A stretch of DNA of 64,000 bases from Nitrosopumilaceae archaeon (GTDB lineage: Archaea > Thermoproteota > Nitrososphaeria > Nitrososphaerales > Nitrosopumilaceae). The notes under the pieces are model-generated. The model made no database searches and was not told the origin of the DNA. It saw only the letters and a list, made by a program, of their open reading frames with translations. Shown piece after piece: positions 11,982-48,817 of this stretch. Position 1 is the first letter of the stretch. Each line of letters opens with the position of its first letter. The position numbers and the translations under genes are program-made. Location of the stretch: NCBI GenBank assembly GCA_965207375.1, contig OZ242274.1, forward strand, positions 1 to 64,000, given 5' to 3'.

Positions 11982-12080
11982 GGCACACTTTTATAAATCA
12001 AATATGAATATTCGTATTTTCAAGTAAAATAAGAATTTTCATGACTATACATTTCATCCTGAAAATCAGCATTATCAAAT

Positions 12081-12226
12081 ATGCCAAAAATAATGAGTTC
12101 AAGGTATCAATACGATACCAAGTGACATTGCCAGAGGATGTCAGAAATCATCTAAAACTAAAACCACACCAAACAATAGGATTCATAGAAGATGACGGGA
12201 AGATCCAAATTGTTACAGATTTTTGA
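12081..12226 (+). pseudogene. AbrB/MazE/SpoVT-family DNA-binding protein, apparently frameshifted near the 5' end
   Basis: ATG CCA AAA ATA ATG AGT (MPKIMS) is out of frame with KVSIRYQVTLPEDVRNHLKLKPHQTIGFIEDDGKIQIVTDF. Confidence 0.6.
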
Positions 12227-12506
12227 ATCAAATGATAGATTCGTCATATCCCCCCGCAAAAAGATTGATGCCAGATCTATCATTTTACATCATATTTTCA
12301 ACATACCCATCTAGACAAGATTAACAGGAATTGTTCACGTTGTGTCTAATTTTTCAATCATGATATCACCCTTTAGGCATCTATGTTAACCACCCCGGCG
12401 CGTACCTTGATGTATCCCTATTGCGTTTCCGTTCCGTGCCTAATTATTTAGTATATCATTTATAGCTAACGCTAGCAAGCTTAATACCGGATTTGACATG
12501 TACAAA

Positions 12507-13598
12507 TCATTTCTGACGTGCCTTTTCCAATTTAGCAAGCTTGCGCTGATACAATCTTGTATTGTGTGACGAATATGGTGTTTTTGTGTTCAGAATGTGC
12601 CATGATATTGTTATCATCTTGTTTGCAACTGCAACAACTGCAAGTGCATGCTTGTCTGCATGTCGCCTTTTTGCAGATTCGTATATTGATTTCATCCTAG
12701 GGTCATGCATTACTGCTACATTTGCTGCCTCGCACATGGCCCAATTCACTATACTGTTGGTGTCTAGTTTCTTCATCCTTCCAAGATATTTTTGATCTCC
12801 TGACTGGTGTATGGTAGGACACAGACCTGCCCATGCAACAAGTTTCTTTGGATTATCAAATCTTGAAATGTCTGCAATTTCGACTGCTAGCAACAATGAA
12901 GTATATGTTCCCATCCCTGTCATGCTTGTCAATAGTTTGGCATACTCGTTGTTTGCTGCCTCTTGTTCTATGTAATTATCCATTTTGGTCAACTCTTCGG
13001 TCAGATGTCTGATCTGTCGGACATATTGCTGCAGAATTATTTCATCATGTATTTCATCAAGAGATACAGACTCTAGATACTGCATTGTCTTTACTGCATA
13101 TACTTGTACTGTATCAATTGAGATATCATGTCTGTCTAAAAGACTGCGTACTCTGTTTATCACTCGTGTCCTATCATGTACTATCTTGATATGCTGTCGT
13201 ATCATTGCACGTATTCCTCGTATGTCCGGTTTTGGTACATAACATTCTGGAATCATATCCATTCGTAATACCTGTGCTATCTTTTGTGCATCCACCTTGT
13301 CTGTCTTTTTGCCAGTCTTGGCAATTATGGCCATCTTGTACGTATTTGCAAGCTTGATTGGTATACCTGCTGCCTCAAATTTAGCATAGGTGATATTCCA
13401 CATGTTGCCTGTAGTTTCACATGCAGCACTGCATGTTTTTTTGTTTCCTGTGTATTTTCGTGCCATGGTTTGTGCAAACTTTTTAGCATCTGCTACCGTG
13501 TTCATATACTGACAGGTCTCAAGTACTCGTCCTGTACCGTTTATGACGCATACGTCACACTTTTTCTTTCCAATGTCTATTCCAATGTATGTTTTCAT
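12507..13598 (-). CDS. IS110-family transposase (bridge recombinase type)
   Basis: RuvC-like DEDD residues in GIDIGK, ACETTG and KTDKVDA; C-terminal AGLCP...QSG; GGAGGTG Shine-Dalgarno upstream. Confidence 0.96.
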   Translation of the reverse strand: MKTYIGIDIGKKKCDVCVINGTGRVLETCQYMNTVADAKKFAQTMARKYTGNKKTCSAACETTGNMWNITYAKFEAAGIPIKLANTYKMAIIAKTGKKTDKVDAQKIAQVLRMDMIPECYVPKPDIRGIRAMIRQHIKIVHDRTRVINRVRSLLDRHDISIDTVQVYAVKTMQYLESVSLDEIHDEIILQQYVRQIRHLTEELTKMDNYIEQEAANNEYAKLLTSMTGMGTYTSLLLAVEIADISRFDNPKKLVAWAGLCPTIHQSGDQKYLGRMKKLDTNSIVNWAMCEAANVAVMHDPRMKSIYESAKRRHADKHALAVVAVANKMITISWHILNTKTPYSSHNTRLYQRKLAKLEKARQK

Positions 13599-13624
13599 CC
13601 TTTCTTTTCACCTCCTTGCGGATG

Positions 13625-13775
13625 TTTTGACGGATCGGAAGCTGCACACATCTATCAGGGCGCATAGCCCAATTACACAGCAGCTCGGATTGCCCCATTC
13701 ACAAAAAAGGGCGCATAGCCCACACCTAATCAGGGGTCGATCCATCACTAGTACAGCGTCGGGGTGGTTATCATG
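13625..13775 (-). ncRNA. Putative IS110 bridge RNA
   Basis: Outer stem 13629-13637/13738-13746 encloses two stem-internal-loop-hairpin arms, each capped by GGGC-UAUGC-GCCC; loop segments match the element's flanks and ends. Boundaries are approximate. Confidence 0.75.
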
Positions 13776-14098
13776 TGTTCACAAATCTACTCTTACGTGA
13801 AAAGGGCAAGTAACATATCTATTGTGATTTTTTTGTTTTAGATGTTATGTCTTTTTAAAAAAAGTACAAGGCATTTTCAAGAAGATCATAAAAATATATT
13901 TTGTTGTCTGCTTTGGTTGAAAATGATTCACTCACATGCAGATATTTGGATTGAATCAAAATAATATCATGTGGTTTAGGTGTTACATGATTCTTATCCG
14001 TTTACCAACCAAAGTTTGTAGAAAAATATGCTATTAAATTTGTCTATTAAAAAAAAATTTAATCAAAGATTATAACAAAAATAATTTTATGTCTAGTA

Positions 14099-15232
14099 AT
14101 GATTAGAAGAAAGAAATTACTATTGTCGTTTTGTGTAACAGCAGTCATTATTACTTTGACTGTGATTACACAAGGTGATATTGCACAAGGTGATACTACA
14201 ATTACCAGACATGTCACATACGATGAAGTCCACAATGCACAGATTAAAATTCTTGATCTGAGAGTTCAACAGAACAAAATTGAAACCGGTGTATTTGGAG
14301 CAATGGAGACTGCAGAGATAAATAGGCAGATTGCAGAGCTCATGCCGATTCTAGACAAATATCAGGAACAGTTACATGCAAAATACTACATAGAGCCTAC
14401 AAGATTAGCCTATCTTGAGCAGGTAGAAGAGGATCTCAGAAATGAGATTTCCAAAATGGGTTTTGATGGTTGGGGCGTAAATCTAAATGCACTGACTAAA
14501 ATCATGGAAATACATACAAATAATGCATCAAAAAACACCCAGATTGAGGCATTGATTGCAAAGTATCCTGACGTGCCTATGAACCTTACCAACGGTGAGG
14601 TCATATTAATTGATCATGCATGTGCCACGCAAATCAACGATTGTAACCCCATTGTGGGCGGAATTGAAATTGAGGGAAACTGTACACTTGGGATGCCAAT
14701 TAGAAATGGCACATGGCCATGGCATACGTATGGTTTTATCACTGCAGGTCACTGCATAAACGATTCGCAGGACATGAACCAACCAAACGAGCATTCGCCT
14801 GAGATAGGTGATCGTACAGATAGTCGATATACAGGTAACTGTGACTGTGCATGGTCTACCAAGACGACTAACACCCCATCTAGCTCTTCCATCTGGAGAT
14901 CGCCTAACAACTATCTAACAGTATATAATGAAGCAACTGATCGACCTGAAAAGGGAGACATGATAGTTTTGTCGGGTAAGACAAGTGGCTTCAAGTTTGG
15001 CCACATAGTTAATGGTAACTTCAAAATGCAGGCAGGTGGAATAGATTGGGATCTGATCAGCCACGACATTAAGGCAAAAGGCGGAGATAGTGGTGCACCC
15101 ATAGGTGATGCGGATGCATCTCACATCATAGGAATCCACAAGGGAACAATCACCAAAAAAGATGGTAGTGTTCACTATGTGGCAACTGCATGGGAAGAAA
15201 TCGACAAGAACTTTTCAGTGAACCTTCACTGA
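14099..15232 (+). CDS. Secreted S1-family (alpha-lytic/streptogrisin-like) serine protease with pro-region
   Basis: Signal peptide; CTLG, FITAGHC (His), CDCAW (Asp), GGDSGAP (Ser). Confidence 0.88.
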   Translation: MIRRKKLLLSFCVTAVIITLTVITQGDIAQGDTTITRHVTYDEVHNAQIKILDLRVQQNKIETGVFGAMETAEINRQIAELMPILDKYQEQLHAKYYIEPTRLAYLEQVEEDLRNEISKMGFDGWGVNLNALTKIMEIHTNNASKNTQIEALIAKYPDVPMNLTNGEVILIDHACATQINDCNPIVGGIEIEGNCTLGMPIRNGTWPWHTYGFITAGHCINDSQDMNQPNEHSPEIGDRTDSRYTGNCDCAWSTKTTNTPSSSSIWRSPNNYLTVYNEATDRPEKGDMIVLSGKTSGFKFGHIVNGNFKMQAGGIDWDLISHDIKAKGGDSGAPIGDADASHIIGIHKGTITKKDGSVHYVATAWEEIDKNFSVNLH

Positions 15233-47138: not shown

Positions 47139-48546
47139 TCTATGTGCAGTCTTAATAAAGACTTGGTTGGATTTTACTTGTTGGAGTATGGCTTTCGCTA
47201 GAACAATATCCTTTCTCAAAAATGAAGGTCGGAAATGTATCTATTCGGGCATTAAATCCCAGTACCATGCTTCATCCATTCATTAGGGTCAAAGTGTAGT
47301 TACTTCCCCTGGCATCGAATCCCATACTGTGTTCACACAATTCCCTAACCATAATGATGTCATCTCAACTTCGCAGCTGACGTGCAGTGCTTTTTTGTCC
47401 CTCCTTTATGCACGTCTCAAAATCAATCTGTTTAATCAACATCCAAAATACACTGTTTAATAATTTAGCAGCAGCTGCCACCCTTGCCTTTGACCTCCCA
47501 CGCCTTTTTGCAAGACGTTTGTAAAACACACCAACAGGCGTATGTGATTTCCTCTTGTCAGTAACTGCTAGATGTGTAACTACTGCCTCAACAAGTGCGT
47601 GTCTTACTAGAGATGCGCCCATCTTTGTTATGTGTCCATGATGTACAGTATCTGCAGAACGTCTAACTGATGGAACCAATCCAAAATACGATGCCAGATG
47701 ATCTGCATCAGAAAACCTTGCAATATCATCTATTTCAGAGGATAGCACAAGTGCAGTATAGTTGGCTATTCCAGGTATCGTGGTGAGAAGTTGTGCGTTT
47801 TTATCCTCCTTTACTTTTTGTTTGATTTGCAGGTTGGCATACGTGATACTGTCTGTAACAGAGGCTAGATTCTTTAGATGCCTGGTCTATTCTCCAGTTG
47901 TTTAGCTGGATTAGTCTCTTTGTATATGGTGCACAAAATGGTGTTCCAGGTATGTCGATTCCTTCCTGCAACAAAATTCCGTGTATTATGTTCTTAAAGC
48001 GAGTAGACTCTTGGACCATCTTGTGTCTGTATCTGACAAGCTGTTGCTTGTTTACCGTGTCTTCATCTGGTACATGGCATGCTGCAACATAATCTCCACG
48101 CAGGAGGTCTGCAAGAATTTGTGTATCTACCTTATCTGTCTTTCTTTTGGATTCTGCAATGAGTCTGTTCATACGAGGATTGGACAGTATGACATCTAGG
48201 TGCAACTCGTCTCTTATCTGAAAGAATGCCGCCTTCCATACCGATGAGGATTCAATTACCAACTTTGAATCTGGATGCAGATATCCAAGGTTGTCCTTGA
48301 TCTCTCCGGGATTATTTTGTATCTTTTTGTTGGCTAGTTCATTACCGTCTGCATCTATGATAAATATCTGAATAGTCTTTTTGTGAACGTTTAGACCGAC
48401 AAAACAGGGTTCCATAGATACCCTCAATTTTACGGTTTTGTGTTTGTTTGCATTGGTGCTTGTAGAACAGGATCTTGTAGAACTTGGACTACTGCCATCA
48501 TCTAATTTCCTTGATCGTGGCACATAAGATTACAAAGCAAGTGTTC
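47139..48546 (-). mobile_element. Second IS110-family element (decayed)
   Basis: End signatures match the first IS110: TCTATGT at 47139 versus 12380, and CAAGTGTTC ending 48546 versus CATGTGTTC ending 13780; similar length of about 1.4 kb. Confidence 0.7.
47365..48415 (-). pseudogene. Frameshifted IS110 transposase
   Basis: GLNVHKK (first catalytic D replaced by N), KTDKVDT, frameshift near 47880, then TIPGI...SEIDDIARF...YFGLVPSVRRSA. Confidence 0.9.
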
Positions 48547-48817
48547 CTATTCTGACAGGGTCCTCACCACAACAGTATGAATTTTTAAGCACAAAACATG
48601 TACTTTTTTGTTCACTGTGTCCACAGAAATCTTCATAATCAACTACCGGTGCCTTTTTTTGCTGTTATAGCACAACTCAAATTTTATACAAATTAATTCA
48701 CATCTAGTTTAGACAGAGTTGTACGGTACCCCTAAATCATACATGTGATAAAATTATCTAGTTTTACAGTTCCAAAACACTACAATTGGTCCTATCATCT
48801 AAAATCAGATTATGTAA

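Follow-up and report, generated by a model that had tools for sequence, protein, structure and literature searches.

The 64,000-nt stretch of DNA analyzed here (the window) very probably harbors an IS1111-type element of the IS110 family that moves by bridge-RNA (seekRNA) guided recombination in an ammonia-oxidising archaeon. The host genome carries archaeal amoA (E 8.9e-115), and the MAGs related to it bear the names Nitrosopumilus and Nitrososphaerales. Bridge-RNA recombinases were discovered in 2024, and the element is a real, well-supported but expected further example of them. At the level of sequence, the RNA structure, the covariation of its guides with flanks and with element ends, the core, the boundaries and the intact gene are established, and the coordinates of all features are listed in Table 1.

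Table 1. Features of the IS1111-type element, its RNA and its surroundings in the window (a dot marks features without strand)
Feature	Position	Strand	Description
Mobile element (IS110 family)	12380..13781	-	1402 bp, including one CA/TG core copy (13780-13781)
Recombinase gene	12507..13598	-	363 aa, uninterrupted; DEDD RuvC-like domain and Tnp domain with GLCPTIHQSG
Bridge RNA	13623..13752	-	Covariance model R1: 143 bits, E 2e-35; structured core 13629-13746
Outer closing helix, 5' strand	13738..13746	-	Pairs with 13629-13637; 9 pairs, 5 with compensatory changes
Loop 1 (target), 5' strand	13722..13732	-	11 nt; nt 4-8 (UUAGG) are complementary to sense-strand CCTAA (12373-12377), immediately beyond the recombinase-3' end
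Loop 1, 5' strand, nt 9-10	within 13722..13732	-	Opposite the core
Loop 1, 3' strand	13697..13708	-	12 nt; nt 4-7 (UUUG) are identical to the element's upstream flank
Loop 1, 3' strand, nt 8-9 and 10-11	within 13697..13708	-	UG equals the core; AA (handshake) repeats the two bases that open the element
Loop 2 (donor), 5' strand	13671..13679	-	9 nt; UGUGU is complementary to ACACA, nt 2-6 at the RNA-proximal end
Loop 2, 3' strand	13646..13657	-	12 nt; AUAGA repeats the final 5 nt at the recombinase-3' end, and the adjoining UG the core
Core dinucleotide CA (TG gene-wise)	12378..12379	.	Recombinase-3' side; part of the target
Core CA, second copy	13780..13781	.	RNA-proximal end
Subterminal inverted repeat, recombinase-3' side	12383..12401	.	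19 nt, 89% complementary to 13756-13774
Subterminal inverted repeat, RNA-proximal side	13756..13774	.	Leaves extensions of 7 nt (core counted) and 3 nt
MITE-like host repeat (target), left part	12327..12379	.	Right part ~13782-13810; 11 paralogous copies aligned
Second IS110-family element	47139-48552		Dead, gene split

For the recombinase, two Pfam families were matched above their cut-offs, PF01548 (DEDD_Tnp_IS110, E 1.1e-27) and PF02371 (Transposase_20, E 3.2e-21), which bears out the intact minus-strand DEDD transposase described in an earlier annotation made from the letters alone (the sequence-only reading). The GL-P----SG motif was also present. The closest solved structure was that of the ISCro4 transposase (PDB 9t56; E 1.7e-15, residues 4-175 and 218-344 aligned), the other best solved relative being the IS621 transposase (E 1.1e-13), and the GID, E, TDxVD and SG catalytic motifs align with both. 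The likeness to ISCro4, namely a DEDD RuvC-like domain together with an SG-bearing Tnp domain, is distant and is a protein-level comparison only. To our knowledge, no IS1111-type structure was among the solved structures compared. A tblastn search against plasmids returned only the label 'IS110 family transposase', with the best match in Haloarcula (34%), and carried no subgroup signal.

Alignment of 11 homologous RNAs revealed five helices backed by compensatory changes, with 93.8% of the cells paired and compensatory changes in 12 of the 28 pairs; none of 500 shuffles was as good, and slid controls gave 28-53% pairing. RNAalifold, run independently, recovered the identical five helices, and the transcribed RNA strand was fixed by G-U pairs. 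Moreover, model R1 had 36 matches among 42 loci, and the RNA adjoins nearly every homologous recombinase gene retrieved. The fold energy of the single RNA sequence was not better than chance (z = -1.09, equalled by 28 of 200 shuffles), and the support for the structure comes from covariation rather than from fold energy. A search of 12000-14200 against Rfam, with E up to 10, returned chance miRNA and snoRNA matches only. The outer stem and the two arms with GGGC-UAUGC-GCCC caps that had been drawn in the sequence-only reading were reproduced in the minimum free energy (MFE) fold, its 15-nt direct repeat was found at 13657-13671 and 13708-13722, and all four loop strands that it quoted lay where it had placed them. 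The twin-capped fold that it described is real and closed by the stem, but it falls within the bridge RNA diversity published in the available portions of PMC11208160 and 10.64898/2026.10.21.760802. The MFE fold also pairs a segment of the inverted repeat with the conserved GGAGGUGA ahead of the start codon, which, like the non-significant single-sequence fold, would suit a mere leader that acts in translation control or recombinase binding, guides no DNA and matches the flanks incidentally. Such a leader is scarcely credible given that, across ~25 independent insertions, the loops vary with the flanks and the helices stay conserved, and that the difference between sister copies is present in guide and flank alike.

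Both strands of the target loop (loop 1) follow the flanks of the insertions. Its 5' strand formed on average 3.83 of 5 Watson-Crick pairs with its own flank compared with 1.48 of 5 with the flanks of other elements (24 insertions, 21 guides), and its 3' strand matched 4.5 of 6 positions of its own flank compared with 1.45 of 6 in the cross comparison (26 insertions, 24 guides), five upstream junctions in this scoring having been assigned visually, on the basis of the end motif, once the guides were known. In a permutation test covering ~25 independent elements, the observed match of either strand was reached in none of 20000 permutations. In 18 of 21 rows, GA/GA and AC/AC variants among them, the handshake was identical to the two bases with which the element begins, and nt 9-10 of the 5' strand were CA, UA, CG or UG with the exception of one homolog, all four of which can pair with the other core strand. 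The guides missed their flank at L030 (0/5), in the element represented by L013, L015 and L016 (3/5) and at the upstream flank of L029 (3/6), and those at L022 and L049 matched only at a 1-nt offset. The agreement of loop strands with flanks and ends, noticed at first in the window copy alone, is therefore far beyond chance when homologs are included.

Comparison of the window copy with its three ~98%-identical sister copies in the same genome (c2-c4) uncovered guide differences at 13703, 13705 and 13706 that mirror the flank differences: the window copy has the guide UUUUUUGUGAA and the flank ..TTTGTG, whereas c2-c4 have the guide UUGGUCGUGAA and the flank ..GTCGTG. Of the 14 substitutions private to the window copy, nine lie in the 183-nt RNA end, three of these in the guide. 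Point changes in module 1 (the target-loop arm) have switched the target of the window copy from CA-CGAC to CA-CAAA, and such natural retargeting in one genome demonstrates that this loop is naturally programmable.

In addition, the donor loop (loop 2) covaries with the element ends. In 17 of 21 distinct rows its 5' strand formed four or more of the five possible Watson-Crick pairs, with compensatory variants including AGCCU/AAGGC and UAAAG/CUUUA, and 26 of the 28 elements examined have an exact copy of the donor 7-mer beside the inverted repeat on the downstream side of the gene. The proposal of an archaeal bispecific bridge recombinase thus holds in that target and ends are each read by a loop of their own, while the target and donor strings first given for it were shifted by 1-2 nt.

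The boundaries in Table 1 are common to all four full-length copies, which share ~98% identity, and fragments were also present in the genome. In a public contig (run X1), position 12379 is joined directly to 13780, the breakpoints being the exact element termini. In gene orientation, the terminal extensions are TGAACAC (7 nt) and AGA (3 nt), and all 31 tabulated rows, counting duplicate loci, have a TG core ahead of the element end. The non-coding DNA measures 183 nt upstream of the recombinase gene, where the RNA lies, versus 127 nt downstream. For sister copy c3, three exact paralogous empty sites consist of the left flank and the right flank with a single CA, and a single CA is likewise present in MITE copies paralogous to the repeat that hosts the window copy, which identifies the crossover dinucleotide as CA on the plus strand (12378-12379 and 13780-13781). 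The TC core that the sequence-only reading had assumed at both junctions was rejected on this evidence; owing to the different core, its predicted empty site and circle junction were 1-2 nt off, and both 14-mers occurred zero times in the genome. An alternative target, ..GGCA-CA-CAAAT, read by a 7-nt left guide with four wobbles, was also discarded, as the occupied locus has just one CA before TCTATG and the homologs place nt 9-10 of the 5' strand against the core.

The locus in run X1 lacks the element and is thus polymorphic for it. Its empty allele retains both CA copies (CACA), so that 1400 rather than 1402 nt are skipped, an outcome that simple core-exchange excision would not be expected to produce. 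Neither a joined (empty) form nor a circle junction had a copy in the genome, and no circle junction was found among the joints listed from four public runs, all contigs. The four other genomes of the genus yielded no orthologous empty site, and the left flank had a DNA match in none of the four, one of which is 76% complete.

Considering these results together with known systems, a mechanism can be proposed. The 5' non-coding end would encode an RNA of ~120 nt on the gene strand, in which the 9-bp helix encloses two modules, each made of a stem, an internal loop and a capped hairpin. In module 1, the 3' loop strand equals the upstream flank (4-8 nt), the core UG and a 2-nt handshake equal to the element's first two bases, and the 5' loop strand complements the 5 nt located beyond the core on the opposite flank. 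Module 2 reads both element ends with the same geometry. The register is that of IS621, with the core at nt 8-9 and the handshake at nt 10-11 of the 3' strand, and the core of the 5' strand in the two nt before a 1-nt linker. The DNA 'top strand' is antisense to the gene, like that of the IS1111 seekRNAs described in the available text of PMC11187229. Strand exchange by the DEDD/Ser recombinase would then take place at the CA core, with the joined ends (...GTGTT-CA-TCTATG...) as one partner and a target, for instance TTAGG-CA-CAAA, as the other, and the predicted circle junction with the CA core reads ..CATGTGTT-CA-TCTATG.. on the plus strand. The targets are located in MITE-like repeats. Transcription of the RNA, formation of the circle and the chemistry of exchange are all presumed in this scheme.

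It is conceivable, if rather unlikely, that the family works as described while the window copy itself is stranded and no longer mobile. Its activity is uncertain because the 5' strand of the target loop contacts the core through two wobble pairs only (UG opposite CA), compared with UA in the sisters and CA in most homologs. The private substitutions in its RNA end, of which one alters the closing helix (13742) and two fall within the inverted repeat, and the lack of a circle junction in the genome and among the listed joints point in the same direction. Against this, its gene is uninterrupted, unlike that of sister c2, which has a TAG inside, the locus is polymorphic in run X1, and nine free sites bear its exact 11-nt target. 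Furthermore, the private guide changes agree with its own flank, indicating that the window copy transposed after these changes arose.

With regard to classification, three marks of IS110 in the broad sense were found: PF01548 and PF02371 with the SG motif, a structured RNA whose two loops address the target and the joined ends, and a core dinucleotide present once in the c3 empty sites and twice around the element, with run X1 to the contrary. According to the available parts of PMC11187229, IS1111 elements have extensions of 7 bp on the left and 3 bp on the right with one copy of the duplication counted, and a seekRNA in which the complement of the top strand stands ahead of that of the bottom strand; their subterminal inverted repeats have been given as 7-17 bp or, in that source, 11-13 bp. 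The present element has a 19-nt subterminal repeat, 7/3-nt extensions and the top-strand (gene-sense) complement first. The long non-coding region expected downstream of the gene in IS1111 was not found there, as the RNA lies upstream. This is the unusual IS1111 trait of the element, with precedent in relatives whose non-coding region is upstream, e.g., ISMtsp17, mentioned in the same text. Its 19-nt repeat and reverse guide order depart from the IS110 group proper (IS621-like), as far as the latter is described in the accessible sections of PMC11208160. That the guides read the strand opposite the transposase sense strand, as the sequence-only reading had stated, is not new, being the published IS1111 seekRNA order in the consulted portion of PMC11187229.

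The likeness to the IS1111 elements ISEc11, ISKpn4 and ISPst6, as presented in the available text of Siddiquee et al. 2024 (PMC11187229), covers the subterminal repeats, the 7/3-nt extensions, the guide order, GL-P----SG, site-specific insertion in short repeated targets and natural retargeting through few substitutions. Relative to the elements covered there, the RNA is upstream instead of downstream as a rule (ISMtsp17 being an upstream relative), the inverted repeat is 19 nt instead of 11-13 nt, and the recombinase has 363 aa instead of 330-350; a simple internal donor loop, an outer helix closing the whole RNA and an ammonia-oxidiser archaeal host are further differences. With IS621, in the parts available of Durrant et al. 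2024 (PMC11208160) and Hiraizumi et al. 2024 (PMC11208158), the element shares a bispecific RNA with target and donor loops, loops that read one strand left and the other strand right of a 2-nt core, a handshake after the core on the 3' strand, an identical register relative to the capping hairpin, a variable target loop with a conserved donor loop, and an RNA at the 5' end. It differs in the 'top' DNA strand, which is antisense to the gene, in the core (CA, TG gene-wise, versus CT), and in its long subterminal inverted repeat and the helix closing both modules. The 5'-strand guides are also shorter (5 nt plus core), and protein identity is low (E 1.1e-13).

An IS110-group (IS621-like) element with guide polarity inverted relative to the gene, which would be a genuinely new arrangement, is improbable. 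Loop geometry equal to that of IS621 nucleotide for nucleotide, ISCro4 and IS621 as the closest solved relatives, and an RNA upstream of the gene, as in that group in the available text of PMC11208160 and PMC11187229, would fit it. The combination of 19-nt repeat, 7/3-nt extensions, guide order and GL-P----SG, however, consists of published IS1111 marks, and an IS1111 relative with upstream non-coding DNA (ISMtsp17) has already been reported, both within what those sources cover. The second IS110-family element of the window also speaks against inverted polarity, as it pairs identical ends with a downstream non-coding region. In gene orientation its ends are ..AACAC.TG (5') and ..ACATAGA (3'), and a loop 3' strand spells its 3' end plus the core, as in the studied element; in contrast, its long non-coding stretch follows the gene, R1 does not match it, and its recombinase has 23% identity over 174 aa to the one studied here. 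The IS1111-type assignment is accordingly preferred.

Of the 401 genomes belonging to the class, 61 gave matches. It may be speculated, with considerable doubt, that these elements form a clade of IS1111-like bridge recombinases across ammonia-oxidising archaea, with the RNA moved to the 5' end, modules locked by the closing helix, a life on MITE families, retargeting via one to three guide substitutions and non-canonical excision leaving both cores (CACA in run X1). Bridge-RNA predictions were obtained for 85.7% of the IS110 and 93.0% of the IS1111 elements (PMC11208160, available parts), and surveys including archaeal genomes exist (10.64898/2026.10.21.760802, likewise), so that an archaeal example is unsurprising. 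A literature search found no paper on a bridge RNA in an element of Nitrososphaeria or Thaumarchaeota, although the supplementary tables of the large surveys may list such cases, and preprint 10.64898/2026.08.14.744561 does not mention archaea, IS1111, subterminal or MITE.

With the present element, readable bridge RNAs are now documented in mesophilic ammonia-oxidising archaea. The 98%-identical sisters, in which guide and flank differ in parallel, provide a self-contained natural case of bridge-RNA programming, and the ~25 related archaeal elements together with the covariance model form a ready covariation set. Being compact (363 aa, RNA of ~120 nt), these systems are also candidates for recombinase mining. 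Moreover, an IS1111-type element with an upstream RNA bears on the movement of the RNA between the element ends as the two groups evolved.

Element W, an IS110-family element with its recombinase gene on the minus strand, is well supported as a real bridge-RNA element. Its uninterrupted 363-aa ORF carried the PF01548 (DEDD_Tnp_IS110; E 1.1e-27) and PF02371 (E 3.2e-21) domains, its top solved-structure matches were the ISCro4 and IS621 transposases, and the GID, E, TDxVD, and SG motifs were kept in the alignment. Archaeal AmoA (PF12942, E 8.9e-115) is encoded in the 4.3-Mb host genome (4 contigs), and related loci came from records of Nitrosopumilus sp. and Nitrososphaerales MAGs; the earlier description of the host as thaumarchaeal therefore holds. 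A search with the recombinase matched 61/401 genomes sampled from the class at E <= 1e-30, a tally that takes in the host genome itself and one unpublished genome. Four full copies, ~98% identical (W, c2, c3, and c4), were present in the host genome together with fragments, and the c2 recombinase gene contained one in-frame TAG.

Features of element W and related sites in the window and on contig C1 of the host genome
Feature	Position	Strand	Detail
Element W	12380-13781		recombinase on minus strand
Recombinase ORF	12507..13598	minus	363 aa
Core copies flanking W	12378-12379; 13780-13781		CA on plus strand
Outer stem of RNA	13738-13746 paired with 13629-13637	minus	fold of 183-nt upstream region
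AAGGAGGUGA pairing with CCACCCC	13599-13625 with 13760-13768		MFE fold
Candidate TATA box	13767-13774		AUGAUAAC (AUGUAAAAAC in homologs)
MITE-like landing pad of W	12327-12379 and 13782-13810		
Second IS110-family element	47139-48552		dead
c2 recombinase gene	C1:875835-876923		
Copy c4	C1:1245891-1247301		locus L004
MITE copy with 13-nt remnant	C1:484245-484307		
MITE copies with replaced left target half	C1:1627332; C1:1270720		
Solo element-end fragments	C1:1755375; 2020898; 733038		
Loci with one RNA module deleted	C1:555709; 1740055		L005; L008

As the sequence-only reading had stated, the 183-nt region ahead of the start codon folds into an outer stem and two arms; each arm has a stem and a large internal loop and is capped by GGGC-UAUGC-GCCC. 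The 15-nt direct repeat corresponds to the two caps. The single-sequence fold energy was no better than that of shuffles (z = -1.09), and Rfam returned nothing for this region. Across 11 upstream regions of recombinase homologs (36-100% protein identity), a five-helix structure had 93.8% of cells paired and changes on both sides in 12/28 pairs; none of 500 shuffles reached any of five structure measures, sliding the partners lowered pairing to 28-53%, and RNAalifold on its own predicted the same five helices (27 pairs); the structure is conserved among homologs. Frequent G-U pairs fix the RNA strand as the gene strand, and the two caps co-vary within each element (GGGC, GUGC, GGUC/GGAC, CGGC). 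A covariance model built from the same 11 regions gave 36 matches in 42 loci, adjoining nearly all homologous genes fetched, and the W RNA was its sole match in the window. Loss of one RNA module by recombination between the cap repeats was observed at two host loci, and a joint in public sequencing run X4 (13656/13708) likewise lacked the module between the caps. CCACCCC of the subterminal repeat is, in the MFE fold, the pairing partner of a conserved AAGGAGGUGA that precedes the start codon; in read-through transcripts, this pairing could hide the ribosome-binding site. The RNA-proximal inverted repeat has an A/T-rich portion ~24 nt ahead of the closing helix, the spacing from an archaeal TATA box to its start site, and this portion is a candidate TATA box by spacing.

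Alignment of the copies with their flanks revealed that identity spans TCTATG (12380) to ..GTGTTCA (13781), and all four full copies were hosted by repeated, MITE-like sequences. In the c3 host repeat, three other copies joined the c3 left flank directly to the right flank with a single CA between, and six further empty copies showed the same join with 1-3 substitutions; therefore, an empty site has one CA and an occupied site has two, one per side, and the plus-strand core reads CA (TG in gene orientation). The TC core proposed earlier is not supported, the empty sites showing a single CA, and both strings based on it had 0 occurrences in the genome. The host repeat family of W reads ..GG(C/G/T)A-CAAAT.. 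in 11 paralogs, and the exact 11-nt target of W was present at two free MITE sites.

These landing pads recur at many places on C1, in dozens of copies (47 blast hits for one flank), and terminal inverted repeats of the GTACTTGTTCAC / GTAAGTGTTTAC type are common to several of the repeat families. Copy c4 has chimeric flanks, the left from a MITE family whose empty copies run on ..TTTTAGACA/CAAAATTAC and the right from the CGACGTAAACACTTAC family, suggesting that two element copies recombined or that a guided rearrangement took place. One MITE copy retained, between the two target halves, a 13-nt remnant consisting of the first 11 nt of the recombinase-3' end of the element plus CA, an outcome that recombination at an internal pseudo-core would be expected to give. 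In two near-identical MITE copies the left target half was replaced by ~11 nt of the RNA-proximal end, and solo element-end fragments were found at three sites.

The 12-nt 3' strand of loop 1 reads, in gene orientation, the upstream flank, the UG core at nt 8-9, and a dinucleotide identical to nt 1-2 of the element. The guide is UUUUUUGUGAA in W (flank ..TTTGTG/AA) and UUGGUCGUGAA in c2-c4 (flanks ..GTCGTG/AA); 9/14 substitutions private to W fell within the 183-nt RNA end, three of them in this guide. Over 26 insertions with 24 different guides, the strand matched its own flank at 4.5/6 positions versus 1.45/6 for flanks of other elements (0/20000 permutations, one insertion per guide; five upstream junctions placed by eye). 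Nt 4-8 of the 5' strand complement the 5 nt past the core on the other side (Watson-Crick 3.83/5 for own flanks versus 1.48 for others; 24 insertions, 21 guides; 0/20000 permutations), and nt 9-10 were CA, UA, CG, or UG, all pairable with the complementary strand of the core, in all homologs except one. Misses were L030 (0/5) and, in part, the L013/L015/L016 element (3/5); the L022 and L049 guides matched at a 1-nt offset only, and the L029 upstream flank matched at 3/6.

Loop 2 plays for the element ends the role that loop 1 has for the target. An exact copy of 3'-strand nt 3-9 (AUAGAUG in W) was present downstream of the gene, beside the inverted repeat, in 26 of the 28 elements with enough sequence (chance ~0.05 per element). 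On the 5' strand, nt 1-5 form pairs with the RNA-proximal end at its nt 2-6, and compensatory variants were observed. The handshake dinucleotide agreed in 18/21 rows, including GA/GA and AC/AC. The earlier proposal that the two loops guide target and element ends is borne out across homologs by both the loop/flank and the loop/end matches.

Contigs of four public runs were compared with window 12200-14000. In run X1, a 1225-nt contig at flank depth joined 12379 straight to 13780, representing the W locus lacking the element; its breakpoints coincide with the exact element termini, and both CA copies are kept (1400 nt skipped, not 1402). Neither joined form occurred in the assembled genome, and the W locus is polymorphic for the element. 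Simple core-exchange excision would leave one CA and so conflicts with the two seen here; the CACA allele is a +2 footprint or else a slippage allele. The circle junction was absent from the joints listed.

In IS621 (PMC11208160; PMC11208158), residue numbers place the core at nt 8-9 past the capping hairpin, a 2-nt handshake guide (nt 10-11) that pairs with positions 6-7 of the other DNA comes after the 3' loop strand, and a 1-nt linker comes after the core on the 5' strand. Both modules of the archaeal RNA keep exactly this register, whereas its DNA strand acting as 'top' is, in contrast to IS621, antisense to the gene. That the guides read the opposite strand, as noted earlier, is real but not new, being the guide order of IS1111 elements (PMC11187229). 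The same source gives a GL-P----S(t)G motif and subterminal inverted repeats with terminal extensions of 7 and 3 bp as features of these elements, and names a few with an upstream non-coding region (ISMtsp17; ISHvo10 and ISAcp5 on both sides). The second IS110-family element in the window is dead, its gene split into 240- and 127-aa ORFs (23% protein identity to the W recombinase), and the covariance model found no match there. Its end signature is the same as that of W, its long non-coding region lies downstream of the gene, not upstream, and one of its loop strands spells the 3' end of this second element. Because of its 19-nt subterminal inverted repeat, the TGAACAC and AGA extensions, the GLCPTIHQSG motif, the guide order, and the ends of the second element, W is filed, on these sequence features, as a putative IS1111-type element with its RNA upstream of the gene.

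Overall, the sequence-only reading was largely right in observation and right in kind in interpretation, but wrong about the core and overstated in novelty. What is notable in W is the retargeting within one genome and a ready archaeal covariation set.
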